Origin: an uncultured Gammaproteobacteria bacterium
GTDB lineage: Bacteria; Pseudomonadota; Gammaproteobacteria; GCA-001735895
NCBI GenBank assembly: GCA_964480635.1
Contig: CAYZQE010000003.1
Span: 1 to 56,364, forward strand
Direction of reading: 5' to 3'
DNA length: 56,364 bases
In this document: positions 30,324-53,517 of the stretch, piece by piece
How positions within the stretch are numbered: the stretch's first letter is position 1
Layout: each line of letters starts with the position of its first letter
Position numbers and translations under genes: made by a program
The notes under the pieces: generated by a model
Told to the model about the DNA's origin: nothing
Database searches by the model: none
Seen by the model: the letters and a program-made list of their open reading frames with translations, nothing else

Positions 30324-30361
30324 AATTATGGACTTAATCAGGGCTTCCTTAACGAGGTTTC

Positions 30362-30465: not shown

Positions 30466-30514
30466 TCTAGTAAAAACACAGAATAAATAAATTTTAATGA
30501 ATAAAGGGCAATAA

Positions 30515-30757: not shown

Positions 30758-30767
30758 TGAATTAATA

Positions 30768-31388: not shown

Positions 31389-31398
31389 GCGAAATAAT

Positions 31399-32187: not shown

Positions 32188-32209
32188 GAAAATCTAAGGT
32201 TTTATAATT

Positions 32210-33064
32210 TTGAAAAAGAAAAGATTAGGGCGCGGCTTAGGTTCGCTTATTGGAAGTGTTGACCGGCTGGTTAATGTAACCGCAGAAGAAAAATCAAATT
32301 CGATGTTAGAGGTCGATGTGGATCAAATTGTGCGCGGAGAATATCAGCCGCGCAAGCATTTTGATGAAGATGCTTTAAACGAACTGGCCGATTCAATAAG
32401 GGCGCAGGGTATTATTCAGCCTATCGTGGTGCGAATGCAAGGCGATCAATATGAGCTAATTGCTGGTGAGCGTCGTTGGCGCGCGGCACAAATTGCAGGG
32501 TTGCAGCAAGTGCCTGTGGTCGTTCGAGACATAGATAGTCAAGCCGCAGCAGCGATTGCTTTAATCGAAAATATTCAGCGAGAAGACTTAAACCCACTAG
32601 AAGAAGCGGCGGCATTAAAACGCTTGATTGATGAGTTTGATTTGACCCACCAACAAGTTGCTGACTCAGTGGGGCGTTCTCGAACTGCGGTGACTAACTT
32701 GTTGCGTTTGTTAGAGTTGGCAGAGCCAGTCAAAGCATGGGTTAATCAAGGCGCCTTAAGCATGGGGCATGCACGAGCCTTATTGGCGCTTGATGTTGAT
32801 GATCAAATAGATGCAGCTAAGATAGTGGTTAATCGTTCGTTATCCGTGCGTGAAACAGAAGCGCTAGTGAAGCAATATCAAATGCCTACAGAGCTTAAAG
32901 TAACGCCTGAAGTGGATCCAGACATTAAGCGTTTAGAGGAATCATTGTCTGAAAAGCTATGTGCAAAGATTGCAATTCAGCAAGGCAAGGCTGGTTCTGG
33001 GAAATTAGTTATTCATTACCATAATGCCGATGAGCTAGAAGGGATATTAGGGCATATTACTTAA
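32210..33064 (+). CDS. parB: Chromosome partitioning protein ParB
   Basis: LGRGLGSL, QPRKHF, IAGERRWRAA, ENIQREDLNPLEEA. Confidence 0.96.
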   Translation: MKKKRLGRGLGSLIGSVDRLVNVTAEEKSNSMLEVDVDQIVRGEYQPRKHFDEDALNELADSIRAQGIIQPIVVRMQGDQYELIAGERRWRAAQIAGLQQVPVVVRDIDSQAAAAIALIENIQREDLNPLEEAAALKRLIDEFDLTHQQVADSVGRSRTAVTNLLRLLELAEPVKAWVNQGALSMGHARALLALDVDDQIDAAKIVVNRSLSVRETEALVKQYQMPTELKVTPEVDPDIKRLEESLSEKLCAKIAIQQGKAGSGKLVIHYHNADELEGILGHIT

Positions 33065-33531
33065 TGCGCTTATTGTTATCCTTATGGATGATGTATTTTA
33101 GTCAAATGGCTTTTGCCCAGTGTGATGACTTATTTGCAGAGCCTGAGTTTGGTTTGGAGAACACTTGGTTGCCTCAAAGTAAAAGCTATGTCCAAGAGGT
33201 TAGTTTTAAAAAGGTTTGCGCTAAGCGGTCAACATGTTACTTAAAAAACGGGAGTGTTCGCGACCAATGTGACGAAGAGTATCATGATAATTTAGAGGCA
33301 GTTTGTAAGGCCGAGTACCCGTATAAAAATAAGTTATATGGGCGCTGTATGAAAAAAATAAATAAAGCGGCTAAATTGGTAAAGTTAGAAGGGGCGCAGT
33401 ATTTTAGATCTCAGAAAAGAAAAGCAGACCAAGAAAAAAGAGAGTCTAATAGAAAGCTAAGGGCTGAAAAAAGAAGGGATGGTTTCTTGCGGCGAGCCGA
33501 GGAAAGAAGGGATAAACGCTTGGGCAGGTAA
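33064..33531 (+). CDS. Secreted Cys-rich protein with a phospholipase A2-like Cys pattern but no His-Asp dyad
   Basis: Signal peptide (AFA/Q), six Cys, F...C-AKRST-CY....R..CD..Y...L...C...C......V...G..YF, basic tail. Confidence 0.6.
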   Translation: MRLLLSLWMMYFSQMAFAQCDDLFAEPEFGLENTWLPQSKSYVQEVSFKKVCAKRSTCYLKNGSVRDQCDEEYHDNLEAVCKAEYPYKNKLYGRCMKKINKAAKLVKLEGAQYFRSQKRKADQEKRESNRKLRAEKRRDGFLRRAEERRDKRLGR

Positions 33532-33603
33532 GGTATAATATTAGTATTGAAGCTGGTAAGAGCGGCGGATACGCCAAGATTAAAAAATAAAATAAAAAGC
33601 ACG

Positions 33604-33632
33604 TTGCATAAAGGCTCCTAACTTAATATAAT
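33604..33632 (+). promoter_or_regulatory. Sigma70 promoter of the atp operon
   Basis: TTGCAT - 17 nt - TATAAT, 24 nt upstream of atpI. Confidence 0.8.
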
Positions 33633-33656
33633 CTGCGCCGATTTATATGGGCTGTA

Positions 33657-34870
<1,214 letters not shown>

Positions 34871-34940
34871 ATTTTAAGCATAATGCTTAAAATCAGTTTT
34901 TAGTTTTATTTAATTTTTACATTTATTTAATTATCTTTAG

Positions 34941-35192
<252 letters not shown>

Positions 35193-35226
35193 GCACGAAT
35201 TTAAGTTTTAAGTTCGGGAGAACAAG

Positions 35227-35697
35227 ATGAATTTCAACGCAACCCTAATTGGACAATCAATCACTTTTTTAGTGTTTGTCTGGTTCTGCATGAAATATGT
35301 ATGGCCTCCGCTCATGCAGGCTCTTGAAGAGCGTCAAGCAAAAATAGCTGATGGCTTAGCGGCTGCTGAAAGAGGTCAAAAAGACCTTGAAAAAGCAAAA
35401 GCACAAGTCGGTGATGACATGAAGATTGCTAAAGAGCAAGCTCAAGAAATCATTAATCAAGCACAAAAAAGAGCATCAGAGATTGTTGATGAAGCAAAAG
35501 GTACAGCACGTACTGAAGCAGATAAGATTAAAGCATCTGCTGAAGCTGAAATGGAACAGTCACTTAATAGTGCTAAAGAGCAATTACGTAAAGATGTATC
35601 AGTGATTGCCTTATCTGGAGCTGAGCGGATTTTGAATAAAGAAATCGACGCGAAGGCTCACAGTGCAGTGCTTGATGACTTAATGGCGCAGATTTAA
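35227..35697 (+). CDS. atpF: ATP synthase subunit b
   Basis: [32 protein letters not shown]. Confidence 0.97.
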
Positions 35698-35701
35698 AGC
35701 T

Positions 35702-36253
35702 ATGTCAGATTTCGAGACAATCGCACGTCCCTATGCTAAGGCTGCATTTGCTAGCGCAAATGAAGCGAAGCAATTGGATCAGTGGTCTGAGTTTTTGGCA
35801 TTTGCTGCAATAGCGACAAATGATGACGTTATGGTTGGTTATTTAACTAACCCCGGTGTTTTATCTTCGGATAAAGCCAGGTTCATTATTGATGTGCTTG
35901 AGGCAGGTTTAACCGCAGCTAAGGTAAGCGACGAGCAGCGTAACTTTATTAAGTTATTGGCTGAAAATATTCGTCTCAATGCTTTTGATGCTATTTGCGA
36001 CCAATACGAAGCGCTTAAGCGTGAAGTAGATGGTGTAGTAGAAGTCAGAGTGGTTTCTGCGCGCAAATTAACAGCGGCTCAAACTAAAGCAATGACGGCT
36101 AAGTTAAAAACACGTTTAGGCAAAGATATTTTAATTACAGCAGAGGTTGACGCAACATTGTTAGCAGGCGCCGTAATTTATGCAGATGATGTGGTTATTG
36201 ACGGCACAGCACGCGGCAAATTAAACAAGTTAGCGAGTGCTTTAAATAAATAA
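35702..36253 (+). CDS. atpH: ATP synthase subunit delta
   Basis: TIARPYAKAAF, LLAEN.RL, VIDGTARGKL. Confidence 0.96.
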   Translation: MSDFETIARPYAKAAFASANEAKQLDQWSEFLAFAAIATNDDVMVGYLTNPGVLSSDKARFIIDVLEAGLTAAKVSDEQRNFIKLLAENIRLNAFDAICDQYEALKREVDGVVEVRVVSARKLTAAQTKAMTAKLKTRLGKDILITAEVDATLLAGAVIYADDVVIDGTARGKLNKLASALNK

Positions 36254-36325
36254 AGCTCAGCTGCTTAAAGAATTCAGTATTAACATTTAATATTTGTATT
36301 TATACATTTAAAAACAGGAAAAGAT

Positions 36326-37867
36326 ATGCAACTTAATCCTTCGGAAATAAGTGAACTTATTAAAGAGCGAATCAAAAACTTTGATAGCTCAACAGAAGCC
36401 AGAACAGAAGGCACTATCGTTAGTTTAACGGATGGTATTGCACGTGTTCATGGTCTTGCTGATGTTATGGCTGGTGAAATGATTGAATTTCCTGGTGATA
36501 CCTTCGGTATGGCACTTAACTTAGAGCGTGACTCAGTGGGTGCGGTTATCTTAGGTTCATATGGACACCTTTCTGAAGGCGATAAGGTTAAGTGTACGGG
36601 TCGTATTCTTGAAGTGCCGGTTGGCGAAGAGCTTCTAGGTCGAGTTGTCAACTCTCTAGGTGAACCACTTGACGGCAAAGGCGCTATTGACGCTAAACTT
36701 TTCTCACCTATCGAACGTGTTGCACCGGGTGTTATCGAGCGTCAATCAGTTAATCAACCTGTGCAAACAGGTATTAAAGCGATTGATGCGATGGTTCCAG
36801 TAGGGCGCGGTCAACGTGAACTCATCATCGGCGATCGTCAAACAGGTAAAACAGCGGTTGCGGTTGATGCCATCATCAACCAAAAAGGAACAGGCGTTAA
36901 ATGTATCTATGTGGCGATTGGTCAAAAAGCATCAACAATAGCGAATGTTGTTCGTAAGCTTGAAGAAAACGATGCTTTAGCACACACCATCATTGTTGCA
37001 GCAGCCGCTTCTGAATCAGCGGCTATGCAATACATTGCACCATATTCTGGTTGTTCAATGGGTGAATATTTCATGGATCGAGGTCAAGATGCCTTAATCG
37101 TCTATGATGATTTAACCAAACAAGCATGGGCTTACCGTCAGGTATCCTTATTGCTTCGTCGCCCTCCAGGTCGTGAAGCCTATCCAGGTGACGTATTCTA
37201 TTTACATTCCCGCTTATTAGAGCGTGCGGCTCGAGTCAATATTGCCTATGTAGAGAAATTTACAGAAGGCAAAGTAAAAGGTAAAACAGGTTCATTAACT
37301 GCTTTACCGATTATTGAAACTCAAGCGGGTGACGTATCAGCCTTCGTACCAACTAATGTCATCTCGATTACTGACGGTCAGATCTTCTTAGAAACAGATT
37401 TATTTAACGCCGGTATTCGTCCAGCAATAAACGCTGGTTTGTCCGTATCACGAGTGGGTGGTGCAGCACAGACTAAAATCATCAAGAAGTTAGGTGGTGG
37501 TGTGCGTTTAGTATTAGCTCAGTATCGTGAACTAGCCGCTTTCGCACAGTTTGCATCTGACCTAGACGAAGTCACTCGTAACCAACTAGCACGTGGGCAG
37601 CGAGTGACAGAATTGATGAAGCAGTTGCAATATGCACCTTTATCAGTGGCTGATATGGCCATGTCATTGTTCGCTGCTAACGAAGGTTTGTTAGACGATG
37701 TTGATGTTAAGAAGATCGTAGATTTTGAATTAGCCATGCATGCTTATTTGCAGTCAAACAGTGCTGACTTAATGGCGAGTATTAATGAGACTGGCGATTT
37801 TAACGATGATATTGCAGCGCAAATGACGACAGCAATTGAAGCGTTTAAGGCTAACGGCGTTTACTAG
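36326..37867 (+). CDS. atpA: ATP synthase subunit alpha
   Basis: [31 protein letters not shown]. Confidence 0.99.
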
Positions 37868-37904
37868 GCTTCCTAGTAATTTATTTGATATAAAGAGATA
37901 GCAA

Positions 37905-38768
37905 ATGGCAGTCGGTAAAGAGATACGCACCAAAATTAAGAGTATTCAAAACACTCAGAAAATTACTAAAGCTATGGAAATGGTAGCGGCTAGTAAAATG
38001 CGTAAAGCACAAGAGCGAATGACCGCAACACGTCCTTATGCAGATAAGATTAAGACCGTTGTGAGTCATATTGCATCATCACATCCTGAGTATAAGCATC
38101 CATATCTTGCATCACGTCCTGTGAAGCGCATAGGGTTGATAGCTGTATCCACTGATCGTGGTTTATGTGGCGGTTTAAACACTAACATGTTTAAAAAATC
38201 ATTGAATCAAATTGCAGAATGGGAAGATGCTGGGCATCAAGTTGATGTGGTTACTTTTGGTGGTAAGGCATTGAGCTTTTTCAGCAGAATTAAAAGCACA
38301 AATGTGGTTGCAGAAGCCAGCAAATTAGGTGATAAGCCTGATGTAATGGAAGTGATTGGTCCCGTTCAAGCTTTATTAAAAAGCTATGCAGATGGCAATG
38401 TTGATGAAATTTATCTCATCAGTAATGTGTATGAAAACACCATGACACAAACGCCAACTGTTCAGCAGTTAGTGCCTGTGGTACCGAGTAAAGAAGAAGA
38501 GTTGGGTCATCATTGGGATTACATTTATGAGCCAGGCTCTAAAGAAGTTTTAAACTCTGTATTAGACCGCTATATTGAATCTATTGTATATCAAGCTGTG
38601 GTTGAAAATGTGGCGTGTGAAATGTCATCACGTATGATTGCAATGAAATCAGCCACTGATAATGCAGGCGACTTAATTAAAGAGCTGCAACAAATTTATA
38701 ACCGCACCAGACAAGCAGCGATCACCCAAGAAATTAGTGAGATTGTAGCTGGCGCAGCGGCTGTTTAG
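37905..38768 (+). CDS. atpG: ATP synthase subunit gamma
   Basis: [34 protein letters not shown]. Confidence 0.99.
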
Positions 38769-38790
38769 TTAGCCTAAGTAAAGAATTTAA

Positions 38791-40218
<1,428 letters not shown>

Positions 40219-40265
40219 ATTTTTCATTCAGAGCATCCTTAAGTAACTAACCTTAGGTAATTATT

Positions 40266-40682
40266 GTGGCTTCAACAATTAATGTCGAAATAGTCAGTGC
40301 AGAAGAGTCTATCTTTTCTGGCGAGGCAGAAATGGTTTATGCACCCTGTATTATGGGTGAGATTGGTATTGCACCAAAGCATACACCCTTAATTTCACCA
40401 CTTAAGCCGGGTGAAATTCGCTTAGATACGGGTGATGGAAACGAAGTGTTTTTCTTTATTTCTGGTGGTATCATCGAAGTACAGCCGCACATGGTTACAG
40501 TGCTTGCTGATACAGCAATTCGTGCTAATGATTTAGATGAAGCGTCTGCCTTAGAAGCAAAAAAACGTGCTGAAACAGCCATTACAGATCAAAAATCAGG
40601 TGTTGATTTGGCGACTGCTAGAGGCGAATTAGCCGCTGCCGCCGCTCAAATTGCAGCGATTCATAAGCTTCGTAAAAAATAA
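40266..40682 (+). CDS. atpC: ATP synthase subunit epsilon
   Basis: EIVSAE, GEIGIAPKHTPL, SGGIIEVQP, VLADTAIR. Confidence 0.97.
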   Translation: MASTINVEIVSAEESIFSGEAEMVYAPCIMGEIGIAPKHTPLISPLKPGEIRLDTGDGNEVFFFISGGIIEVQPHMVTVLADTAIRANDLDEASALEAKKRAETAITDQKSGVDLATARGELAAAAAQIAAIHKLRKK

Positions 40683-41141: not shown

Positions 41142-42422
<1,281 letters not shown>

Positions 42423-42502: not shown

Positions 42503-42844
42503 TCAGCCAGAACTCCATGCCCTTGGCTTTTTCATACCGGCAATTTTACAGGCTTGTTTGACATAACCAAAAGGGAAAAGTCTAAACAAACGGTTATGTG
42601 CTACTTTTTTGGTGGTTTCGAAATTATCACGCATAAACATAATGGTGTGACGAGTGTCAGGTGCCACTTTATGCTCATCATAATATTTTCGCATAAAAAA
42701 TATTATCTCCCAATACTCATCGTCTAAAATTAATTGTTCATCTTCGGCCATTTGTTTACAGGCTTGAATACTCCAAGCATCAGGGTCAAATAAATACCCT
42801 TCAAAATCAGTTTCTATCGTTTCGTTATCAACTGTTAGCATCAT
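42503..42844 (-). CDS. TusE/DsrC-family protein lacking the terminal Cys
   Basis: ETDFEGYL.DP..WS, L.DEYWEIIFFMR.YY, LFP.GYVKQACKIAGMKKPRAWSSG. Confidence 0.85.
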   Translation of the reverse strand: MMLTVDNETIETDFEGYLFDPDAWSIQACKQMAEDEQLILDDEYWEIIFFMRKYYDEHKVAPDTRHTIMFMRDNFETTKKVAHNRLFRLFPFGYVKQACKIAGMKKPRAWSSG

Positions 42845-42845
42845 C

Positions 42846-44720
42846 CTATCCAGTGAAAATTCTAATGGTTTGGCTGATTTTTTCTTTTAAAGAGGTCTTT
42901 AAAATAGTATCTATTAGCTCATTAAATTTAAATTTATGGTGACGTTCATAAGCTACGCCCATTTGCGGCATATCAGCTAAGCCACTTTCACGAGCATGTT
43001 CTTCGAAGCCTTTATTTTTCCAAAAGAAAGCACCCGGCATGGTCGTTGGGATAACGACCACATAAAACAGTGCCCGACTAATCGCAATAGAGAACATTGC
43101 ACCAGCCATCATGATAATCCATATTAATGTATTGAACTCTATAAACATATGACTTGAAATAGCTAATATGAAAAGAGTTGGTAATAAAGCATTACGCAAA
43201 ATAAAAGCGTAACCATAGGTGGTTTGTTGTTCATAATATGAAGCCGATGCTTCAGATGCTGAGTTAAAGCTGTGTTTTCTGTGTGCTATTAACGCAATGG
43301 CCTCTAAGCTAAGTCCGGCCATAAAGACAAAAGACAAGACTTTTAAGTTGCCATTAAAATCAGAGAGTAAAGAGGCAATGGCAATAATAGAGCTACCTAA
43401 AGTCAATGCTGTAGCAACAAACGAGGCGTCGGTATGCCAGTGATGCCAAAAGGGGCGAGCGGGGATACGATATAATTGAATCATATAGTAAGCTCCTAAC
43501 AATCCGCCAAGGGCACTGATGACAGCAAAACCGTTTTGCAACCAAGCAAATAAGGTGATGTCATTAAAAAAGTGAAAGACAGTACAGCCGATTAATCCCA
43601 TAAAAAACAAGGATACACCGGCAATTTCACGGCTAACGGGTGACCACTTTAAATTATAAAAACCTCGATAAAACCGATGCGGTTTACCGAGGTGCATATT
43701 TAATTTGAATAAACCAGTACCTGAAATTAAGACTAAAACAGGAAGCAAAAAATTTAATACGTCATCAGATAAAGCAAAAGCTGCTACAAAAGGCATGGAT
43801 AATAGTAATAAAAATGCACCTATAACGGCTTGGGTGGTTAGTGTAAATGCAATGTGTGCATTTTCATGAGAGCTGAAAAGCGCCTTAATGTTAAAGGAAC
43901 GTTTATATCCATGTTTAGCATCTAGTGTCGGTTTAAATTCACCGTCATTACCTTCTTTATGATATTTAAGCGCGGTGCTATCAACACGATTCATATCGCG
44001 GTGTGCTGTTCGTTTTTGCTCAAAACGGATATTAGGCTTAGTGATTGAGGTGTCAGGAAAGCCCGGTATTTCTGTTTTGGCTTGAGTACGATTCTCAGGG
44101 ATGTCTTCAATTACACCAAAGTCTAAGGCGTTGCCTAAGCAAGCGGCGACGCAAGCAGGCTTTAAGCCGACTTCTAAGCGGTCAACACACATATTACATT
44201 TACTCACTTCACCTTTAACAGGGTCAAGCTGAGGTGCATTGTAAGGACACACCCATGTGCAGTAGCCACAGCCAAAACAGATGTCTGGGTCTTGTAATAC
44301 CGCGCCATATTCTGCAAATTTTGTATAGGCACGAGTCGGACAGCCTTTTAAGCACACTGGATCATCACAATGGTTACACGCCATTGAAATATTTAGGCGT
44401 TGATAAGCAGGATAAGTGCCGCCTTCAACAAAACCAACGGAGCGAAAGGCTAAATGTGACGGCACATCATTTTTTTCACTACAGGCAGATTCACAGGCAT
44501 GACAGCCAATGCAGTTATCGGCATTAAAATAAAAACCATGTTGCTTATAACGGTCAGGGTTTTCGTAGGGCTGTTCTTGCTGATTAATAACAAATGATTG
44601 GTTTTCTAATTTCGAATTATTAATCGTAGTGTTGATGGCACCACCGTATTGATTCGTTGTTTTGCTGTCTGAATGTTTCAGAATTGCATAGCTTGGTTCA
44701 TTGTCGCGTCTAGGAAACAT
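42846..44720 (-). CDS. Fused DmsB-like 4x[4Fe-4S] protein and DmsC-like membrane anchor
   Basis: CIGCHACESAC, CNHCDDPVCLKGCP, CFGCGYCTWVCP, CNMC..PACVAAC, then multiple TM helices with HLGKPHRFYR and WSPVSREI. Confidence 0.88.
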   Translation of the reverse strand: MFPRRDNEPSYAILKHSDSKTTNQYGGAINTTINNSKLENQSFVINQQEQPYENPDRYKQHGFYFNADNCIGCHACESACSEKNDVPSHLAFRSVGFVEGGTYPAYQRLNISMACNHCDDPVCLKGCPTRAYTKFAEYGAVLQDPDICFGCGYCTWVCPYNAPQLDPVKGEVSKCNMCVDRLEVGLKPACVAACLGNALDFGVIEDIPENRTQAKTEIPGFPDTSITKPNIRFEQKRTAHRDMNRVDSTALKYHKEGNDGEFKPTLDAKHGYKRSFNIKALFSSHENAHIAFTLTTQAVIGAFLLLLSMPFVAAFALSDDVLNFLLPVLVLISGTGLFKLNMHLGKPHRFYRGFYNLKWSPVSREIAGVSLFFMGLIGCTVFHFFNDITLFAWLQNGFAVISALGGLLGAYYMIQLYRIPARPFWHHWHTDASFVATALTLGSSIIAIASLLSDFNGNLKVLSFVFMAGLSLEAIALIAHRKHSFNSASEASASYYEQQTTYGYAFILRNALLPTLFILAISSHMFIEFNTLIWIIMMAGAMFSIAISRALFYVVVIPTTMPGAFFWKNKGFEEHARESGLADMPQMGVAYERHHKFKFNELIDTILKTSLKEKISQTIRIFTG

Positions 44721-46924
44721 TAAAAACTCCTCATTTCTTTACTCATAAGAGCCGCTGATTTTTGATCTTCTAAAATTTCAATGCGCACGGCAGATTGCTT
44801 ATATGCAGGTTGTCGTGAATGAGGGTCAAGTAAACCAAGGGTTAAGCGATTAGCGCAGTCATGAAAATGAAAAGGTAAGAAAATCATATTTTTGGGGACA
44901 CGTTGCGTGGGCGTTGCCATCACAATGGCATCAGAACGGCGTGAGACTAAACGTACATATTCACCACGTAAAATACCTAATTCAGCAGCTAAATCAGGAT
45001 TGATTTCAATAAATGGAATCGGACTAAATTTATTGTTGTTAGCTACTTTGCCCGTTTTTGTACGGCCATGCCAGTGTTCAACAAGGCGACCTGTGTTTAA
45101 CCAAACTGGGAATTTTTCATCGGGTACTTCATTGTTATCTATGAAGGGTAAGGGGATCAGTTTAGCCTTGCCATCAGCATAACGAAATTCACCATCTTTG
45201 GTATATAAACGCACACCACCCTTGGCTGGCACTTCATTGGCATCACGTTGTTGCTCTGTATAAGGCCACTGGATGCCACGGTGTTTTTCGATCAGCTCAT
45301 GGTCTAAGCCAGAGATATCAGCGAGACGACCTTTTGATATTTCTCGCATTTCTAAAAACACATCGGCGGCTTTGTCTGGAAATTTTACTTTATTATCAGT
45401 ATTAAAGCGTTTTGCTAATTCATTAAAAATCCACAAATCGGGCTGTGCCTCACCGGGGGCTTTAATCACGGGTTTAACCACATTAACTCGGCGTTCGGTG
45501 TTGGTCATGACACCGTCTTTTTCTGCCCATGTGCCTGCTGGTAAATAGACGTGAGCATATTGTGCGCTTTCAACGTCTTCATAACAGTCTTGCACCACGC
45601 AAAAATCGAGCTTTTCCATCGCCTTGCGCACACGCGCCGAATTGGGTAATGACGATAATGGGTTGGTGGCGATGAGCCAGATGCCTTTTATTTCACCTGT
45701 TTCAATCGCATGATAAATGTCGGTTTGGAACATACCTCGTTTTTTAGGTAAGAACTCTTCGTCAATGTTCCAATATTCGGCTATTTCTTTACGATCATCA
45801 GCATTTTCTAGGGTGCGATAATTAGGCAAACCAGAGCAAGAAGACCATTCGCGCGTGCCCATGGCATTACATTGGCCGGTGATGGATAAGCTGGTGCCGC
45901 CAGGTATGCCAATGTTGCCCGTAATGAGCGATAAATTGTTGATGCCCACCACGCCATCAGAGCCATGTGTTGATTGGTTAATGCCCATAGTCCAAAAAGA
46001 CATGGCTGCTTTTGCCTTGCCATAAAGGCGAGCGACCACACGAATGGTATCTTCATCAATGCCGCAGATTTTAGCGGCTGTGGTGGGATCGTATTTGGCG
46101 ACTTCAGCTTTTAATTCTTCTAGGCCATTGGTATTGGCTTCGATATAGGCATCGTCTTGTAAGTTCTCAGCGAAGATGACATGCATTAACGCATTTTGCA
46201 GTACAACGTCTGTTCCTGGAGTAATGGGCAGATGGATATCAGCACATTGGGCTAACATGGTCACACGCGGGTCGATGACAATTAAAGGAAACCCTGTGCG
46301 TTCTTGTGCTTCTTTCATACGCCAGTAAATAATGGGGTGTTGCTCGGGTAAGTTAGAGCCCCAAGCCATTAAACAGTCGGTGTGTTCAAAGTCTTCATAA
46401 CAGCCTGGTGGGCCGTCGGAACCAAACGAGCGTTTATAGCCTGATACGGCTGATGCCATACACAAAGTGGTGTTGCCATCGTAATTATTGGTGCCGATTA
46501 AGCCACGAGTCAGCTTGCCCAGAGTATAAAACTCTTCGGTGAGCATTTGACCAGTTGAGATAACCGCAAATGAATCTCGACCATGTTCTTGTTGTACTTT
46601 TTTAATGCCTTGGTAGGTGGCATCTAATGCGCTATCCCAATCCGTTGATTGCCAATCTTGATGCCATTGGTCACGGACTTTTGGTACTAAACCACGCCCT
46701 GCAGATTCAAATAATTCGTGTTCAAAAATACCTTTTAAGCACAGCTTGCCTCGGTTTACATCGGCATCAGCCACACCGCGAGAAGAAACCGCTCGGCCTT
46801 CTTTGGTTAAACCAACTTCTATAGCACAACCTGTTGAGCAATAACCACAAGTGGCATATTTCCATTCAACGATGCCTTTATCGTTGATTTTTATGGGGTT
46901 CTTTTGGGTTCTGCCGAATAACAT
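44720..46924 (-). CDS. nasA: Assimilatory-type nitrate reductase catalytic subunit (Mo-bisPGD), NasA/NarB-like
   Basis: CGYCSTGC...KLCLKG [4Fe-4S], NYDGNTTLCMASA, GQCNAMG, LNTGR..EHWH, PAYKQSAV; no Tat motif and no C-terminal BFD domain. Confidence 0.85.
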   Translation of the reverse strand: MLFGRTQKNPIKINDKGIVEWKYATCGYCSTGCAIEVGLTKEGRAVSSRGVADADVNRGKLCLKGIFEHELFESAGRGLVPKVRDQWHQDWQSTDWDSALDATYQGIKKVQQEHGRDSFAVISTGQMLTEEFYTLGKLTRGLIGTNNYDGNTTLCMASAVSGYKRSFGSDGPPGCYEDFEHTDCLMAWGSNLPEQHPIIYWRMKEAQERTGFPLIVIDPRVTMLAQCADIHLPITPGTDVVLQNALMHVIFAENLQDDAYIEANTNGLEELKAEVAKYDPTTAAKICGIDEDTIRVVARLYGKAKAAMSFWTMGINQSTHGSDGVVGINNLSLITGNIGIPGGTSLSITGQCNAMGTREWSSCSGLPNYRTLENADDRKEIAEYWNIDEEFLPKKRGMFQTDIYHAIETGEIKGIWLIATNPLSSLPNSARVRKAMEKLDFCVVQDCYEDVESAQYAHVYLPAGTWAEKDGVMTNTERRVNVVKPVIKAPGEAQPDLWIFNELAKRFNTDNKVKFPDKAADVFLEMREISKGRLADISGLDHELIEKHRGIQWPYTEQQRDANEVPAKGGVRLYTKDGEFRYADGKAKLIPLPFIDNNEVPDEKFPVWLNTGRLVEHWHGRTKTGKVANNNKFSPIPFIEINPDLAAELGILRGEYVRLVSRRSDAIVMATPTQRVPKNMIFLPFHFHDCANRLTLGLLDPHSRQPAYKQSAVRIEILEDQKSAALMSKEMRSF

Positions 46925-46976
46925 AATTGAATCTCGTAAATTTAAAGAGTTTCTTTACTTCCCCCTCTCCCGTTAA

Positions 46977-47133
46977 GGAGACACTGAATAACCGCGATTA
47001 GAATTTCACTGAGAAAAAATGTGCGTCAAGTTTCGTTAAATGCGTCGTAATAGCTGGCTATTGCGTCGAATTTAACGGAAGTTGTCGTGCATTTTAGCCG
47101 GTAAAAAATAATTGGCGGTTGTTCAGTGTCTCC
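46977..47133. mobile_element. MITE-like inverted-repeat element, copy 1 (157 bp)
   Basis: 19-bp TIR GGAGACACTGAA(T/C)AACCGC, TTAA on both flanks, no ORF. Confidence 0.65.
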
Positions 47134-47164
47134 TTAAGAGAGGGGCTAAAAACATAGCTTATTT

Positions 47165-47479
47165 TTAAGACAATGCCTGTATAAACACCATACCATTTTC
47201 AACTTTGGTATTAAACGTATTCACACAGCCTTCGTCTGCGCCCATGGCTTCGCCACTGGTTAAATCAATTTTCCAGTTATGTAATGGGCATGTTACTGAA
47301 CTGCCGTGAACAATGCCTTGTGATAACGGGCCTTTTTTATGAGGGCATTCGTCTTTAACCGCAAATACGTCGTTATTACTGTTCTTAAAAATAGCGATGT
47401 TCATGGTCGCTGTTTTCACAACACGTGAGCCTAATGCCGGAATGTCGTCTAATGCTACTACTTCTGTCCAGTTACTCAT
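47165..47479 (-). CDS. nirD: Nitrite reductase small subunit, Rieske ferredoxin
   Basis: CPHKKGPLSQG...VTCPLHNW, with intact Rieske ligands. Confidence 0.92.
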   Translation of the reverse strand: MSNWTEVVALDDIPALGSRVVKTATMNIAIFKNSNNDVFAVKDECPHKKGPLSQGIVHGSSVTCPLHNWKIDLTSGEAMGADEGCVNTFNTKVENGMVFIQALS

Positions 47480-47481
47480 GA

Positions 47482-49929
47482 TTAACCTGCCGCGTTCATA
47501 TTTGTGATCTCAATTTGAGTAAACTCATGCTTTTGTGCGCCTTCGGCACGTTCTTTCCATGGGTCAGATTGCGAGAATGATTGGCTGAATCTAAAGCGTT
47601 CTGCTAAAGCCGTGCGTTCTGCCTCATCATTCATAATACAATCTTGCACATAGGTGAAACCAACGCGTTCTACCCAAGGGGCTGTGCGTTCAAGATAATG
47701 TGCTTCTTCACGGTATTTTTGGGTAAAGGCAGCACAATATTCTAATACGTCTTCTTCTGTTTCTACCTTGCCGAGTAAATCGGTCACACGAACTTTGATG
47801 CCGCCGTTGCCGCCAATATGAAGCTCATAACCAGAGTCAACACACACCACACCAAAGTCTTTAATCGTCGCTTCTGCACAGTTACGTGGACAACCTGATA
47901 CCGCAAGTTTGTATTTATGCTGCATCCAAGAGCCCCAAGTAAGCTGTTCTAGCTTAACACCTAAGCCGGTTGAGTCTTGAGTACCGAAGCGGCACCAGTT
48001 TGAACCAGCACAGGTTTTAACCGTACGCATCGCCTTGCCATAAGCATGACCAGAAACAAACCCAGCGGCTGATAAATCTTTCCACACGCCGGGTAAGTCT
48101 TCTTTTTTGATGCCAAACATATCAATGCGTTGACCACCTGTGACTTTCATTTCTGGGATTTCAAATTTATCACACACATCGGCTATAGCGCGTAGCTCGT
48201 TAGGCTTAACTAAGCCACCAAACATACGTGGCACAACAGAATAAGTACCGTCTTTTTGAATATTGCCATGAGCGCGTTCATTAATAAAACGAGACTGCGC
48301 ATCATCTTTATATTCGGCAGGCCAACGTGCTAATAAGTAATAGTTAAGTGCTGGGCGACAGGTGGCGCAACCGTCTGGTGTTTTCCAGTTCAGGTATGAA
48401 CGTAACGTGCCCATGTCTTTTAATTCTTCTGTTTTAATCGCATTAATCACATCGTCATGGCTGTGATCGGTACAAGCACATAAAGGTTTTTTGCTTGGCT
48501 TGTCATCGTAACCTTCGCCAACAGTCGACGCTAAAATACATTCCACTAAACCGGTGCAAGAACCACAAGATGATGAAGCTTTGGTATGGGCTTGAACCTC
48601 AGCTAAGGTGAATAAACCTTTTTTAACAATGGTGTCGATGATGTCGCCTTTATTAACACCATTACAGCCGCAAATTTCGGCATCATTAGATAATGACATA
48701 ACCGCCGCATCACCGTGTCCTGCATCACCTAAGTCGTGCTGACCAAACATGATGGTGCGACGGAAATCTTTAATGTTGGTGCCTTCACGTAATAGTTGGA
48801 AGTACCAAGTGCCGTCTAGTGTATCGCCATATAAAACAGCGCCCACTAGCTTGTCATCTTTAATCACTAATTTTTTATAAATGCCGCTGCTGGTGTCTTC
48901 CATCATTAAGACTTCATCACCGTCTTTTTCGTTAAACTCGCCAGCTGAAAATAAATCAATGCCTGTGACTTTAAGTTTGGTAGAAGTCACAGAACCTTCA
49001 TAACGGGCAATGCCATATTGCGCTAAATGATTGGCAGCAACCTTAGCTTGTTCAAATAGTGGTGCTACTAGGCCGTAACACATGCCTCTATGTTGAACGC
49101 ACTCGCCAACCGCATAAATTTTTGGGTCATAAGTTTGCATGGTGTCGTTAACCACAATGCCACGTTCACAATAAATGCCGGCTTCTTGCGCTAGTGCCAT
49201 ATTGGGTCGAATACCAACAGCCATAACAACCAAATCAGCATCTTGCTCTTTGCCATTAGCAAAGCGAACACCGCTGACTTTATCATTACCCAAAATTTCG
49301 GCCGTTTGTGCTTCCATTAAAAAGGTAAGTCCACGTTCTTCTAATGATATTTTTAACATGGCTGATGCCGTTGCATCTAATTGGCGCTCCATTAATGAAT
49401 CGAGAAGGTGAACGACGGTCACGTTCATGCCTTGTTTCATTAAGCCATTAGCAGCCTCAAGCCCTAATAAACCACCCCCAATAACAACTGCATTTTTACC
49501 CGTTTTAGCCGCTGCAACCATTTGCTCTACGTCGGCAATATCTCTGAAACCAATGCAACCTATTTTGTCAGCACCAGGAATGGGAATGATAAAAGGATTA
49601 GAGCCTGTTGCTATGAGCAATTTATCGTAAGGGAATTTTTTACCACTTTCAGTGATCACTGCGCGTTGGACGCGATCAATTTTTGTGGCTGTATCACCCG
49701 TGACCAGTTTAATGTTATTTTCTTCGTACCACTGGGATGAATTAAGAATGATGTCATCAATTGTTTTTTCGCCAGCTAAAACAGGCGACAGCATGATGCG
49801 GTTGTAATTGTTATGGGGCTCAGAACCGATTACCGTGATGTCATATTCTACATCAGTAATTTTAAACAGCTCTTCTAGTGTGCGTACACCCGCCATACCA
49901 TTACCAATTAAAACTATTTTTTCGCTCAT
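47482..49929 (-). CDS. nirB: NAD(P)H-dependent nitrite reductase large subunit
   Basis: GNGMAG, YNRIMLS, GGGLLGLEAA, ICGCNGV, SCGSC, RTVKTC.G...C, SGCPRNCAE. Start moved to MSEK. Confidence 0.95.
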   Translation of the reverse strand: MSEKIVLIGNGMAGVRTLEELFKITDVEYDITVIGSEPHNNYNRIMLSPVLAGEKTIDDIILNSSQWYEENNIKLVTGDTATKIDRVQRAVITESGKKFPYDKLLIATGSNPFIIPIPGADKIGCIGFRDIADVEQMVAAAKTGKNAVVIGGGLLGLEAANGLMKQGMNVTVVHLLDSLMERQLDATASAMLKISLEERGLTFLMEAQTAEILGNDKVSGVRFANGKEQDADLVVMAVGIRPNMALAQEAGIYCERGIVVNDTMQTYDPKIYAVGECVQHRGMCYGLVAPLFEQAKVAANHLAQYGIARYEGSVTSTKLKVTGIDLFSAGEFNEKDGDEVLMMEDTSSGIYKKLVIKDDKLVGAVLYGDTLDGTWYFQLLREGTNIKDFRRTIMFGQHDLGDAGHGDAAVMSLSNDAEICGCNGVNKGDIIDTIVKKGLFTLAEVQAHTKASSSCGSCTGLVECILASTVGEGYDDKPSKKPLCACTDHSHDDVINAIKTEELKDMGTLRSYLNWKTPDGCATCRPALNYYLLARWPAEYKDDAQSRFINERAHGNIQKDGTYSVVPRMFGGLVKPNELRAIADVCDKFEIPEMKVTGGQRIDMFGIKKEDLPGVWKDLSAAGFVSGHAYGKAMRTVKTCAGSNWCRFGTQDSTGLGVKLEQLTWGSWMQHKYKLAVSGCPRNCAEATIKDFGVVCVDSGYELHIGGNGGIKVRVTDLLGKVETEEDVLEYCAAFTQKYREEAHYLERTAPWVERVGFTYVQDCIMNDEAERTALAERFRFSQSFSQSDPWKERAEGAQKHEFTQIEITNMNAAG

Positions 49930-50032
49930 GTGTTCCTCAGCATTGAATTTGATTGGGCGCATTTTACATAGCTATTAGTGATTTTCTAATAATATGCTTT
50001 TATATCAATTAAAATATTAGTATTTGCTTACA

Positions 50033-50158: not shown

Positions 50159-50274
50159 GGAGACACTGAATAACCGCGATTAGAATTTTACTGAGAAAAA
50201 TGTGCGTCGAATTTAACGGAAGTTGTCGTGCATTTTAGCGAGTAAAAAATAATTGGCGGTTGTTTAATGTCTCC
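50159..50274. mobile_element. MITE-like inverted-repeat element, copy 2 (116 bp)
   Basis: Near-identical to 46977-47133 except for a 40-bp internal deletion, one fewer A and a few substitutions. Confidence 0.65.
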
Positions 50275-50301
50275 TTGACTAGCGATCACTTGGATTCATA
50301 C

Positions 50302-51771
50302 ATGAATACAACCAAACTCAACCTGTTTTCTTTTAGCGGTAACATTCGCACACTGCATATTACTTGGGTGGCATTTTTTATCTCGTTCATGGTTTGGTTT
50401 AATCATGCGCCTTTAATGGTGATCTTACGTGATTCTTTTGGCCTATCAGACCAAGAAGTGGGTGTGATTTTAATTATGAATTTGGCCTTAACAATACCAG
50501 CAAGAATTATTGTTGGTATGTTGGTAGACAGGTTTGGGCCGCGCCTATTATTTTCTTTTATTCTTGTTTTAGCAGGTGTTTTAACCATCCCTTTTGCCTT
50601 GGCTAATTCATTTGAGCAGTTGGCTGTCTCACGTTTACTGTTAGGCTTTGTTGGTGCTGGATTCGTTGTTGGTATTCGTTTAATCGGTGAATGGTTTCCA
50701 GCAAAACAAACGGGGTTAGCTCAAGGTATTTATGGTGGCTGGGGTAATTTTGGTTCAGCTGGCTCAGCGATGATACTGCCTATATTAGCTTTTTGGTATG
50801 GTGGTGATAATGGTTGGCGTTACGCTATTTTGTCCACAGGTGCCGTGGCTATTTTATACGGCGTGTATTTTTATTTTTCAGTGTCTAATACACCAAAAGG
50901 AGCCACTTATTTTAAAACAAATAAAATCGGTGCTTTAGAAGTCACCAGCAAAGTCGATTTGTTTCTCTATTTATTCATGACCATACCCTTATATGCGGCA
51001 CTGGCCTTAGTGGTATGGAAATTATCAGATGGCAATTTAGGTTGGCTCAGTAATAGTGTGTCGTATAGTATTTATGCCATTATTTTGACTGTTTATTTGT
51101 GGCAAGCTTGGAGCATAATATCAATCAATAAAGGTGTTTTCATCAAAAAAACACCAAAAATGTTTCGTTACTCATTTAAGCAAGTCGCGGTGCTAGATTT
51201 AGCATATATGGTGACTTTTGGTTCGGAGTTAGCGTTAGTGTCTATGTTGCCGCTATTTTATACCGATATGTTTGGTCTTTCTTTGGTGTTGGCGGGAGTT
51301 TTAGCGGGTATTTATCCTGTCATTAACTTAATTGCTCGCCCAAGTGGAGGCATTATGAGTGATCGCATCGGTCGAAAAAAGTCGTTAGTTATTTTGTTTT
51401 CAGGCATTACGGTTACCTTTTTTCTATTAGGGCAAGTGTCAAGTGAGTGGGCTGTCGCTCTGGTGGTCATTAATACCATAGCGTGTGGCTTGTTTGCTCA
51501 AGGTGGTTCGGGTGCAGTCTATGCCATGGCACCTCTTATTCAGCGCCGCCAAACGGGACAAATTGCAGGCATGGTCGGGGCTTATGGTAATGTGGGGGGG
51601 TTAGTTTTTTTAACGGTGCTGTCATTTACGCTACCACAAACTTTCTTCATGGTGATTGCTTTTACCGCATTGGTTGTTCTAATTGTTATGATAATCTTTT
51701 TGAAAGAACCTTCAGGGCAAACTGCAGAAGTAATGCCAGATGGGACGGTACAAATGATTGATGTGTCTTAA
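50302..51771 (+). CDS. NarK/NasA-family nitrate/nitrite MFS transporter
   Basis: WVAFFISFMVWF, TIPARIIVGMLVDRFGPR, GFVGAGFVVGIR, GGWGNFG, ARPSGGIMSD. Start moved to MNTTK. Confidence 0.92.
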   Translation: MNTTKLNLFSFSGNIRTLHITWVAFFISFMVWFNHAPLMVILRDSFGLSDQEVGVILIMNLALTIPARIIVGMLVDRFGPRLLFSFILVLAGVLTIPFALANSFEQLAVSRLLLGFVGAGFVVGIRLIGEWFPAKQTGLAQGIYGGWGNFGSAGSAMILPILAFWYGGDNGWRYAILSTGAVAILYGVYFYFSVSNTPKGATYFKTNKIGALEVTSKVDLFLYLFMTIPLYAALALVVWKLSDGNLGWLSNSVSYSIYAIILTVYLWQAWSIISINKGVFIKKTPKMFRYSFKQVAVLDLAYMVTFGSELALVSMLPLFYTDMFGLSLVLAGVLAGIYPVINLIARPSGGIMSDRIGRKKSLVILFSGITVTFFLLGQVSSEWAVALVVINTIACGLFAQGGSGAVYAMAPLIQRRQTGQIAGMVGAYGNVGGLVFLTVLSFTLPQTFFMVIAFTALVVLIVMIIFLKEPSGQTAEVMPDGTVQMIDVS

Positions 51772-51798: not shown

Positions 51799-53517
51799 AT
51801 GACAACAAAATTATCGGTCACTATTGGGCAATCATCAGACAAAGGCATTAAACAGCGAAATGAAGATTTTTATGGCACCTTAATTCCTAATGATGACAGT
51901 TTAGAAACTAAAGGCATTGTCTGTGCTATTGCCGATGGTATGGGCAGTTGTGAATTCGCGGCTGAAGCGAGTGAGCAGTGCGTAAAGTCATTTCTCAATG
52001 ATTATTACAGTACTCCAGAAGCATGGTCAGTAAAAAAATCGGCAGGTAAGGTGCTGACAGCGACTAATAATTGGTTGTTAAGCCAAAATAAAAATGATGC
52101 TGTGCATGGCATGGTGACGACCTTTAGTGCGCTAATTCTAAAATCGACGACAGCACATATATTTCATGTGGGTGACTCACGTATTTATCGTTTACGCGGT
52201 GATGATTTAGAACAGTTGACTAATGACCATCGTATTAATGTATCGGATAGCAAAAGCTATCTAAGCCGCGCTATGGGCATAGATCATTTGTTGGATATTG
52301 ATCTTAAAACAGTGTCGATGCAGGTGGGTGATCTGTATTTAATGACGACTGATGGTATTCATGATTATATGTCGGCTATTCAATTAAAGGTATTTTTACA
52401 GCAGCCTTTTGACTCTTTAGATGAACAGGCAAAATATATTGCAGATGCGGCATTAAAAGCCAAAAGCCACGATAACGTGACAGTGCAATTGGTGCGCATT
52501 GATGCAATACCTAATCAAGATGAAAGCGAAGTTTTTTCACGCCTCAGTAAATTGCCCTTTCCCCCACATTTAGGCCCAGGCATGACCGTTGATGGTTATG
52601 AAATTTTAGAAGAGATTTATGCCAGTACCACATCACAGCTGTATAAGGTAAGAGATAAAGAAAGTGGTGAATATTTCGCCATGAAAACACCATCGGTTAA
52701 TTTTGAAGATGACGTGGCTTATATTGATCGCTTTTATATGGAAGAGTGGGCAGGAAAGCGCTTAAATAGTCATTTGGTGCTTAAAATTCACGAACTCCCT
52801 CGAACACGTAATTTTTTATACATGATTATGGAGCTGGTAGAAGGCATTACTTTGCGCGATTGGATGAAGGGTAACCCAGACCCAGATATTGATGACGTGA
52901 TTGAAATGACTGAAAAAATCAGTGCAGGCATACGCGTATTGCATCGCATGGATATGCTACACCGTGATTTAAAGCCAGAAAACATTATGATAACTGAGAG
53001 TCAGGCCATTAAAATTATCGACTTTGGTTCAATAAAAATTGCAGGTATTTCAGAAATTGCTACGCCTTTAGAAAAAACAGAATTATTAGGCACAAAAAAT
53101 TATACCGCTCCCGAGTGCTTACAAGGTATGGGCTCCGATCAACGCGGCGATATTTTTGCTTTAGGGGTGATGGTGTATGAAATGTTTACAGGGGCTTTGC
53201 CTTATGGCGACAAAATGGGACGAAATCTAAATGCTCGCTCTATCAATAAATTAAAATATCAATCAGCATCGGCTATAAACCCCATGATTCCCTTATGGAT
53301 AGATGGCGCTATAGAAAAAGCAGTGCGCGTTGACCATAACTACCGCTATGAAGTATTTTCAGAGTTTTTATTCGATTTAAAAAAGCCAAACGCTAATTTT
53401 AGTGACCGTTCAATACCGTGGGTAGAAAAAGACCCTGCTTTGGTTTGGAAATCAATTTCGGCGGGACTATTAATCATTAATTTAGTCATGCTTTATTGGT
53501 TGGTAATTGCACCATAA
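51799..53517 (+). CDS. Bifunctional PP2C phosphatase / Ser-Thr kinase with C-terminal TM
   Basis: NEDF, IADGMG, HVGDSRIY, TTDG, SHDN (PP2C); FAMK, HRDLKPENI, DFG, YTAPE (kinase). Confidence 0.9.
   Translation: MTTKLSVTIGQSSDKGIKQRNEDFYGTLIPNDDSLETKGIVCAIADGMGSCEFAAEASEQCVKSFLNDYYSTPEAWSVKKSAGKVLTATNNWLLSQNKNDAVHGMVTTFSALILKSTTAHIFHVGDSRIYRLRGDDLEQLTNDHRINVSDSKSYLSRAMGIDHLLDIDLKTVSMQVGDLYLMTTDGIHDYMSAIQLKVFLQQPFDSLDEQAKYIADAALKAKSHDNVTVQLVRIDAIPNQDESEVFSRLSKLPFPPHLGPGMTVDGYEILEEIYASTTSQLYKVRDKESGEYFAMKTPSVNFEDDVAYIDRFYMEEWAGKRLNSHLVLKIHELPRTRNFLYMIMELVEGITLRDWMKGNPDPDIDDVIEMTEKISAGIRVLHRMDMLHRDLKPENIMITESQAIKIIDFGSIKIAGISEIATPLEKTELLGTKNYTAPECLQGMGSDQRGDIFALGVMVYEMFTGALPYGDKMGRNLNARSINKLKYQSASAINPMIPLWIDGAIEKAVRVDHNYRYEVFSEFLFDLKKPNANFSDRSIPWVEKDPALVWKSISAGLLIINLVMLYWLVIAP

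Follow-up and report, generated by a model that had tools for sequence, protein, structure and literature searches.

Textbook assimilatory nitrate reductases, including Klebsiella NasA-NasB, Paracoccus NasC-NasBG, cyanobacterial NarB, Bacillus NasBC and actinobacterial NasN, are soluble cytoplasmic enzymes that take electrons from NAD(P)H diaphorases, ferredoxin or flavodoxin, often through a fused C-terminal domain. Complex iron-sulfur molybdoenzymes such as E. coli DmsABC and Thermus thermophilus PsrABC instead contain a four-cluster B subunit and an NrfD/DmsC-type membrane anchor, with a Tat-exported catalytic subunit on the periplasmic side. According to a review (PMC8076601), the only described complex with an NrfD/DmsC-type anchor whose A and B subunits face the cytoplasm is SoeABC, the sulfite:quinone oxidoreductase of Allochromatium vinosum and Aquifex aeolicus, which has no Tat signal, a four-cluster B subunit, and an 8-TM haem-free C subunit with His65 and Glu87. 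The respiratory nitrate reductase NarGHI is also cytoplasm-facing and quinol-oxidising with a four-cluster Fe-S subunit, and in some bacteria is used for assimilation as well (Mycobacterium work cited in PMC11636981), but its di-haem b subunit NarI oxidises quinol on the periplasmic side and builds a redox loop. The periplasmic Nap enzymes are Tat-exported and fed by NapB/NapC or NapGH.

We examined a 56,364-nucleotide stretch of a contig (CAYZQE010000003.1, positions 1 to 56,364, assembly GCA_964480635.1; hereafter the window) from an uncultured gammaproteobacterium, in which a sequence-only reading had noted a minus-strand run of nirB, nirD, a nitrate reductase gene, a DmsB-DmsC fusion and a dsrC-like gene, and had inferred a cytoplasm-facing nitrate reductase that takes electrons from quinol to make nitrite for NirBD. 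The gene arrangement was confirmed, with domain assignments from Pfam and NCBIfam. The features are as follows:

42503-42844, minus strand: DsrC/TusE-family protein of 113 aa (DsrC, 98 bits).
42846-44720, minus strand: 624-aa fused electron-transfer and membrane subunit (the fusion), with Fer4_11 (78 bits) and DmsC (64 bits, cut-off 22.3) domains.
43020-43871, minus strand: DmsC-like membrane domain of the fusion, with the putative quinol-site residues H343 (43692-43694) and E365 (43626-43628).
44019-44546, minus strand: DmsB-like ferredoxin domain of the fusion, with 16 invariant Cys in four groups.
44718-44722, minus strand: TAATG, the overlap of the MoA stop and the fusion start.
44720-46924, minus strand: 734-aa Nas/Nap-type Mo-bisPGD catalytic subunit (MoA), with the Mo-ligand Cys155 (codon 46460-46462) and the motif TGQCNAMGTRE (45848-45880).
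47165-47479, minus strand: NirD, the small subunit of nitrite reductase (TIGR02378, 101 bits).
47482-49962, minus strand: NirB, the NAD(P)H sirohaem nitrite reductase large subunit (TIGR02374, 949 bits).
50260-51771, plus strand: NarK-family nitrate/nitrite MFS transporter, transcribed divergently from nirB (TIGR00886, 307 bits, just under the cut-off of 311.7).
51799-53517, plus strand: PP2C phosphatase fused to a Ser/Thr kinase, probably a regulator of nitrate uptake or assimilation.

The sequence-only reading ended nirB at 49929, which is the internal Met12 and an equally plausible start. A GAGGAG Shine-Dalgarno sequence lies upstream of the TAATG overlap, an arrangement that indicates translational coupling of MoA and the fusion.

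MoA contains Molybdop_Fe4S4 (43 bits), Molybdopterin and Molydop_binding domains, with the FS0 cysteines C26, C29, C33 and C62, and the Mo-ligand Cys155 in the motif LCMAS. Its N-terminus, MLFGRTQKNPIK..., has no twin-arginine motif and no hydrophobic region, unlike E. coli NapA and DmsA in the same alignment. It has no Fer2_BFD, flavodoxin or FAD domain, and 0 residues beyond the Mo-binding domain, whereas six canonical Nas references have 161-563 more. The best solved-structure match is monomeric NapA from D. desulfuricans (PDB 2NAP; 414 bits over residues 20-715), with which it shares the Mo-Cys motif NN.DGN..LCMASAV.GY. The closest annotated plasmid genes are assimilatory nitrate reductases at 35-40% identity, canonical Nas enzymes are 34-40% identical to MoA, and identity to DmsA is only 24%. 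NarG belongs to a distant Asp-ligated family (36 bits for MoA against the narG model).

We next asked whether MoA might act on a substrate other than nitrate, for example formate, chlorate or a sulfur oxyanion, with the clustering with nirBD being incidental. The top-scoring NCBIfam model was the broad Fdh-alpha model (530 bits), and MoA fell below the cut-offs of the nitrate reductase models (NasC, 484 against 1100; NasA_Halo, 466 against 1000; NapA, 421 against 904), and is therefore a separate subfamily with no model of its own. Some members are named 'anaerobic selenocysteine-containing dehydrogenase' by JGI, and a DsrC-like and an SQR-like gene are nearby in the window. However, MoA lacks the active-site His and Arg of formate dehydrogenase, and has instead DGNTTLCMASAV (with Cys155) and TGQCNAMGTRE, as in Nas and Nap, where E. 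coli FdhF shows CH and RGQNNVQG at the same alignment positions. In a neighbour-joining tree, the MoA family formed its own clade (200/200 bootstraps), and FdhF and DmsA split from the family plus Nas plus Nap in 191/200. Grouping of the family with FdhF, or of MoA with NapA, was observed in 0/200. This tree contains few references, and lacks NarB, Bacillus NasC and SoeA. Clustering with non-nitrate Mo enzymes, which would have contradicted the sequence-only reading, was thus not seen, and a substrate other than nitrate appears very unlikely.

To investigate the occurrence of the MoA-fusion pair, the gene neighborhoods of homologs in genomes and metagenomes were examined. In 75 of 75 metagenome loci found through MoA with room downstream, the fusion follows directly, and in every genome locus found through the fusion with room upstream, MoA precedes it. 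Larger gaps in two loci (L016 and L022) are an IS transposase and a VapBC-like insertion. The same pair recurs in 150 or more independent loci, far beyond chance, and the fusion is the only partner present in 100% of loci. Fusions at 40-42% identity are preceded by MoA-clade genes at 57-64% identity, and a soil locus with a 32%-identical fusion and a 46%-identical MoA, in inverted order, sits with a NirA-like gene, a CysJ-like gene and an MFS transporter. nirB lies upstream of MoA in 47 of 53 metagenome loci with room, and the link to nirB(D)/narK holds across 100 or more loci. NarK is present in about one third of the genome loci, and the PP2C-kinase gene is always next to it. By contrast, the DsrC-like gene, which the sequence-only reading had listed in the run, is not a conserved part of the module. 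It is present in about 15% of loci (downstream of the fusion in only 7 of 80 and 9 of 57 loci in the two surveys), and the SQR-like gene is in none of the other 160. The DsrC-like protein in the window keeps Cys99 at the CysB position, but ends in ...KQACKIAGMKKPRAWSSG, with Ser in place of the penultimate CysA, and falls below the TusE equivalog cut-off (78 against 191) while passing the broad subfamily model.

The fusion consists of a conserved N-terminal extension (aa 1-58), a DmsB-like domain with four [4Fe-4S] clusters (aa 59-234), a linker (aa 235-283), a DmsC/NrfD-like 8-TM domain (aa 284-567) and a conserved basic C-terminal tail (aa 568-624). It is colinear with E. coli DmsB (residues 3-184 match fusion residues 59-234, E = 1.6e-43) followed by DmsC (residues 5-284 match fusion residues 284-567), although the ferredoxin domain falls below the DmsB equivalog cut-off (163 against 214). 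DmsB and DmsC are separate polypeptides, as are the B and C subunits of SoeABC, whereas here a single ORF covers both modules, and all homologs are 620-660 aa long. The four Cys groups (C70/73/76/80, C115/118/123/127, C148/151/154/158 and C175/178/190/194) are complete, and all 16 Cys are invariant in 52 homologs. Eight TM helices are present, and the top fold matches of the membrane domain are ActC and PsrC. The DmsC quinol-site residues H65 and E87, mutation of which blocks quinol oxidation (PMC8076601), align with the invariant H343 and E365 in the TM2-TM3 loop.

Neither protein has a Tat or Sec signal. The K+R content of the Fe-S-side loops is 4, 2 and 1.3, with 11 in the linker and 9.3 in the tail, while the opposite loops have 0-0.2 each. 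This predicts that the Fe-S domain and the putative quinol site are on the cytoplasmic side, the reverse of the bias shown by E. coli DmsC, and an orientation like that of SoeABC.

The presence of nirBD directly upstream in most loci raises the possibility that MoA is an ordinary soluble enzyme fed by NADH through NirB and NirD, the latter acting as a NasG-like ferredoxin as in Paracoccus NasBGC, with the fusion being only an anchor, a regulator or a secondary donor. Consistent with this, NirB keeps its FAD/NAD and BFD domains, and NirD in the window is of the NasG-like type with intact Rieske ligands (CPH...CPLH, from aa 45), as are 42 other NirD-like ORFs in the genome loci. However, 16 loci from methanotrophs and Cycloclasticus have a NirD without Rieske ligands and still keep MoA and the fusion, and a remote locus pairs the module with a NirA-like reductase and has no NirBD. 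The invariance of the Fe-S cysteines and of both quinol-site residues is also hard to explain for a mere anchor. We therefore consider this explanation unlikely, although a NADH-linked route may exist in addition.

The sequence-level tests supported the interpretation of the sequence-only reading. We suggest, with moderate confidence, that MoA and the fusion form a two-polypeptide, cytoplasm-facing enzyme built like DmsABC, PsrABC and SoeABC, but with a Nas-type nitrate-reducing subunit. In the proposed pathway, nitrate is imported by NarK, and quinol is oxidised at the DmsC-like site (H343, E365) on the cytoplasmic face of the 8-TM domain. Electrons pass along the four [4Fe-4S] clusters to FS0 of MoA and then to Mo-bisPGD, nitrate is reduced to nitrite in the cytoplasm, and NirBD reduces nitrite to ammonium for assimilation. 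In SoeABC, electrons instead pass from sulfite to quinone, and SoeA is a different catalytic family. The binding of the two proteins to each other, quinol as the donor, the direction of electron flow and the assimilatory role are inferences. AlphaFold2 failed on the Fe-S domain (pLDDT about 25), and we found no description of the pairing and no activity, localisation or co-purification data for any member in our literature searches. DmsC in E. coli uses menaquinol, and the use of ubiquinol in these Gamma- and Betaproteobacteria is assumed from host taxonomy.

An alternative is that the complex is mainly a dissimilatory or redox-balancing quinol:nitrate reductase, a functional analogue of Nar, with NirBD serving to detoxify nitrite or reduce it to ammonium, and assimilation being secondary. 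The architecture is that of respiratory molybdoenzymes, NarK and NirBD also accompany respiratory nitrate reduction in enterobacteria, and many hosts live at oxic-anoxic interfaces, as symbionts or as Sedimenticola and Sulfuricella. However, the quinol site is predicted on the same side as nitrate reduction and there are no haems, so no redox loop is expected. The module is also present in the obligately aerobic lineages Methylomicrobium, Methylobacter and Cycloclasticus, its closest relatives are assimilatory enzymes, and some loci (L077, L010 and L029) carry it beside a canonical NasA in the same assimilation cluster. We regard a mainly dissimilatory role as improbable. With both reactions on the N-side, the default expectation is an electroneutral enzyme. 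More speculatively, and doubtful on present evidence, the NrfD/DmsC-like domain may couple the quinol-to-nitrate potential drop (about 0.3 V) to proton translocation, or release the quinol protons to the periplasm, in which case nitrate assimilation would conserve energy. The same enzyme could also act as a respiratory nitrate reductase in microaerobic methanotrophs and in chemosynthetic symbionts, where nitrate use has so far been assigned to Nar and Nap only. The invariant R549 and Y553 align with DmsC R271 and Y275, listed as ion-pathway residues in PMC8076601.

The arrangement is not peculiar to this genome, but is widespread in sulfur-oxidising and methane-oxidising bacteria. The family appears in at least 80 species-representative genomes, in thousands of metagenome proteins, and in soil lineages at lower identity, and occurs in well-studied systems including tubeworm, Solemya and lucinid symbionts, Methylobacter, Methylomicrobium, Cycloclasticus and Sulfuricella. 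Because the partner protein is annotated as a 'DMSO reductase anchor', a '4Fe-4S protein' or even an 'aspartate carbamoyltransferase', metabolic reconstructions miss it. A 2024 Riftia symbiont study assigns assimilatory nitrate reduction to Nar, and its main text does not mention nasA. The enzyme would be the second example, after SoeABC, of an inverted, cytoplasm-facing NrfD-type molybdoenzyme, and the first with fused B and C modules, which is useful for understanding how such complexes are wired and evolve. A quinol-fed, membrane-anchored nitrate reductase would be a third way of powering nitrate assimilation. It would spare NAD(P)H or ferredoxin, which fits hosts that reduce their quinone pool directly (sulfide, thiosulfate or methane oxidisers), and for which quinol is the first product of substrate oxidation while NADH is costly to make.

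We listed and translated the ORFs of the window and scanned them against Pfam and NCBIfam. The scans confirmed the minus-strand run proposed in the sequence-only reading, in which nirB and nirD are followed by an assimilatory-type nitrate reductase gene, a DmsB/DmsC fusion and a dsrC-like gene. The genes of the region are as follows.

47482-49962, minus strand: NirB, scoring 949 bits against TIGR02374. The end coordinate in the sequence-only reading, 49929, is the internal Met12 and is an equally plausible start.
47165-47479, minus strand: NirD.
44720-46924, minus strand: a 734-aa Mo-bisPGD protein, here called MoA.
42846-44720, minus strand: a 624-aa protein with Fer4_11 and DmsC domains, here called the fusion.
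42503-42844, minus strand: a 113-aa DsrC-family protein.
41151-42422, plus strand: a 423-aa sulfide:quinone reductase (SQR)-like flavoprotein, whose gene converges on the DsrC-like gene.
50260-51771, plus strand: a NarK-type transporter, transcribed divergently.
51799-53517, plus strand: a PP2C-Ser/Thr kinase fusion, transcribed divergently.
28458-40682, plus strand: mnmG, rsmG, parA, parB and the atp operon (atpB ... atpC).

The last of these, which lies upstream, has the gene order typical of the region next to the chromosomal origin in Gammaproteobacteria, indicating that this is ordinary chromosomal DNA. The MoA stop and the fusion start overlap as TAATG, preceded by GAGGAG, an arrangement that indicates translational coupling. 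An Rfam scan of the window found nothing, and a promoter and terminator scan gave nothing above chance.

MoA contains the FS0 cysteines C26, C29, C33 and C62, and the Mo-ligand Cys155 in DGNTTLCMASAV. Its best solved-structure match is the monomeric NapA of D. desulfuricans, at 414 bits over residues 20-715, with the same Mo-Cys motif. MoA was aligned with E. coli NapA, FdhF and DmsA, and with six annotated assimilatory nitrate reductases; a nasA hit on a Klebsiella plasmid was split and unannotated, and was not used as a reference. In this alignment, MoA shares the Nas/Nap signatures LCMAS and TGQxNAMG-xRE, and lacks the formate dehydrogenase Sec/Cys-His and Arg. No Tat signal is present in MoA, whereas NapA and DmsA in the same alignment show theirs. 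MoA ends exactly where the Mo-binding domain ends, whereas the canonical Nas references continue for 161-563 residues of electron-donor domains. An odd mosaic feature of the family is the C-terminal 30 residues, where the MoA tail (...AVRIEILEDQKSAALMSKEMRSF) aligns with the tail of E. coli FdhF (...AVRVEPIADQRAAEQYVIDEY) and not with Nas or Nap.

A neighbour-joining tree with Kimura distances was constructed from 704 trimmed columns, with a limited set of references. The MoA family was monophyletic in 200 of 200 bootstrap replicates, and FdhF and DmsA separated from the family plus Nas plus Nap in 191 of 200. The family never paired with FdhF or with NapA (0 of 200 each). Identity to canonical Nas is 34-40%, and the closest annotated genes on plasmids are all assimilatory nitrate reductases. 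MoA falls below the NCBIfam cut-offs of NasC, NasA and NapA, and is therefore a distinct subfamily of nitrate-reductase-like enzymes without a model of its own. In databases, it is named 'nitrate reductase', 'molybdopterin-dependent oxidoreductase', 'ferredoxin-nitrate reductase' or 'anaerobic selenocysteine-containing dehydrogenase'.

We next examined the partner protein. A profile of the fusion family aligns colinearly with E. coli DmsB (residues 3-184 to fusion 59-234, E = 1.6e-43) and then with DmsC (residues 5-284 to fusion 284-567, E = 1.2e-18). The additional segments are a conserved 58-residue N-terminal extension, a linker of about 50 residues and a conserved basic tail of about 57 residues. 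All 16 cysteines of the four ferredoxin groups are invariant in 52 homologs. Hydropathy analysis and the membrane part of an AlphaFold2 model built with a 52-sequence alignment, which was well predicted (pLDDT above 90), both give eight TM helices. The Fe-S domain and the tails of this model were unusable (pLDDT about 25), and no structural claims are made about the cytoplasmic part. A Foldseek search returned the NrfD-family subunits ActC and PsrC first, although the E-values were weak for the same reason. The two DmsC residues whose mutation blocks quinol oxidation or binding, His65 and Glu87 (PMC8076601), align with H343 and E365 of the fusion, both of which are invariant.

To investigate the orientation of the fusion, we looked for export signals and examined the distribution of charged residues. 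Neither protein has an export signal. The N-terminal 'RR' of the fusion was considered as a possible Tat signal, but only R5 is invariant, other members have VR or AR, and no hydrophobic region follows. Counts of lysine plus arginine, averaged over 14 homologs, are 4.0, 2.0 and 1.3 in the loops on the Fe-S side, plus 11 in the linker (window protein) and 9.3 in the tail, whereas the four loops on the other side have 0-0.2 each. E. coli DmsC, whose DmsB side is periplasmic, shows the opposite bias, with 6 on the far side and 2 on the DmsB side. By the positive-inside rule, the Fe-S domain, the quinol site and therefore MoA are predicted to face the cytoplasm. Among NrfD-type complexes, the 2021 review lists only SoeABC with this orientation (PMC8076601). 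A search for SoeBC-type relatives among plasmids gave as its best candidate a system in Rhodobacter xanthinilyticus, which turned out to be a TorD/cytochrome c-linked periplasmic system.

To investigate the occurrence of the MoA-fusion pair, homologs of the fusion were collected and their neighborhoods examined. The fusion has thousands of homologs (3676 with E of 1e-3 or better among the candidates scored), from Thiotrichaceae, Cocleimonas, Sedimenticola, tubeworm, Solemya and lucinid symbionts, Methylobacter, Methylomicrobium, Methyloglobulus, Cycloclasticus, Sulfuricella and others. In every locus with room upstream, MoA (68-84% identical) precedes the fusion, and nirB(D) is upstream in most. 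NarK with the kinase appears in about a third. In about 25 of the 80 genome loci, NarK is always followed by, or paired with, the 572-aa PP2C phosphatase and Ser/Thr kinase fusion, in either orientation relative to nirB, which suggests phospho-regulation of nitrate uptake.

The reverse test was carried out with 80 metagenome loci found through MoA. Of these, 75 have the fusion directly downstream, 5 run off the contig, and none has room without a fusion; nirB is upstream in 47 of 53. Larger gaps between MoA and the fusion were examined for accessory genes, but contain insertions placed exactly between the two genes: an IS1595/ISXO2-like transposase in the locus of the Lamellibrachia symbiont (L016, 8956-9930, minus strand), and a PIN-toxin/antitoxin pair in a Methyloglobulus locus (L022, 8708-9348, plus strand). 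These insertions break the translational coupling seen elsewhere.

The pairing persists in distant relatives found in a library clustered at 50%, where fusions at 40-42% identity are preceded by MoA-clade genes at 57-64%. A remote version of the module on a soil metagenome contig (L177, 2363-11192) has the order NirA-like sirohaem reductase, CysJ-like flavodoxin/FAD/NAD protein, fusion (32% identity), Mo subunit and MFS transporter. Its Mo subunit is 46% identical to MoA, and carries the same DGNTTLCM and GQCNAMG motifs. This is a different gene order in the same nitrate-assimilation setting. Given the motifs of MoA and the genomic context of the module, a substrate other than nitrate is unlikely. 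Some genomes carry a canonical NasA (about 885 aa, with the C-terminal extension, 34-36% identical to MoA) in the same cluster as the MoA-fusion pair, as in loci L077 (4463-7120 and 7143-9344), L010 (13226-) and L029 (12780-), and the two nitrate reductase types can therefore coexist.

The DsrC-like and SQR-like genes were considered as functional parts of the module, and both were rejected. A DsrC-family gene follows the fusion in only 7 of 80 and 9 of 57 loci (about 15%), with three different C-termini: ...AWCVG (both Cys), ...ACKIAGMRKPLKLLLDL (CysB only) and Cys-less forms. The copy in the window ends AWSSG, and keeps CysB but has Ser where the essential penultimate CysA should be. The protein could be regulatory, but it is not a conserved part of the module. 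The best NCBIfam match of the SQR-like protein is type III SQR, at 110 bits and far below the cut-off, and the gene has no counterpart in the other 160 loci.

NirD occurs in two forms next to this module. One is a NasG-like form with full Rieske ligands (CPH...CPLH), found in the window and in 42 other ORFs in the genome loci. The other is an E. coli-like form without ligands, found in methanotroph and Cycloclasticus loci, where NirB is only 36-39% identical to that of the window. NasG of Paracoccus probably carries the same full set of Rieske ligands, and a route from NADH through NirB and NirD to MoA cannot be excluded in the window. However, 16 loci from methanotrophs and Cycloclasticus have a ligand-less NirD and still keep the MoA-fusion pair.

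We found no description of a Nas-type enzyme with a DmsBC or NrfD partner in the papers searched, although a prior description cannot be excluded because most subscription journals fell outside the search. The 2021 review of NrfD-containing complexes does not list a nitrate reductase (PMC8076601), and genome papers simply say 'nasA'. A 2024 Riftia symbiont study assigns assimilatory nitrate reduction to Nar, and its main text does not mention nasA. Yet Endoriftia and related symbionts carry the module. In tubeworm symbionts, including Candidatus Endoriftia persephone, NCBI and UniRef label the fusion homologs (our sequences P0040, P0055 and P0101) 'aspartate carbamoyltransferase', which is clearly a wrong annotation, and the Endoriftia contig (L179) shows a Molydop_binding gene end directly upstream. 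The module has the known architecture of a complex iron-sulfur molybdoenzyme, predicted to be inverted like SoeABC, but with fused B and C modules and a Nas-type catalytic subunit.

The simplest model that fits these observations is a cytoplasm-facing quinol:nitrate oxidoreductase, in which quinol is oxidised at the H343/E365 site, electrons run through four [4Fe-4S] clusters to FS0 and then to Mo, and nitrite is handed to NirBD. The interpretation in the sequence-only reading, of a cytoplasm-facing enzyme that takes quinol electrons to make nitrite for NirBD, is supported as far as sequence analysis can go. We hold with good confidence that MoA is a nitrate reductase used with NirBD, and with only moderate confidence that it is part of a quinol-fed membrane complex. 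From established redox potentials, the reaction is strongly downhill, with ubiquinone near +0.1 V and nitrate/nitrite near +0.42 V. Both half-reactions would be on the N-side and the anchor has no haems, so no redox loop is expected. A mainly respiratory role is possible, but fits poorly with the N-side quinol site, the obligately aerobic hosts and the closest relatives. The hosts are organisms that reduce quinone directly and pay for NADH, which gives an inferred rationale for such an enzyme.
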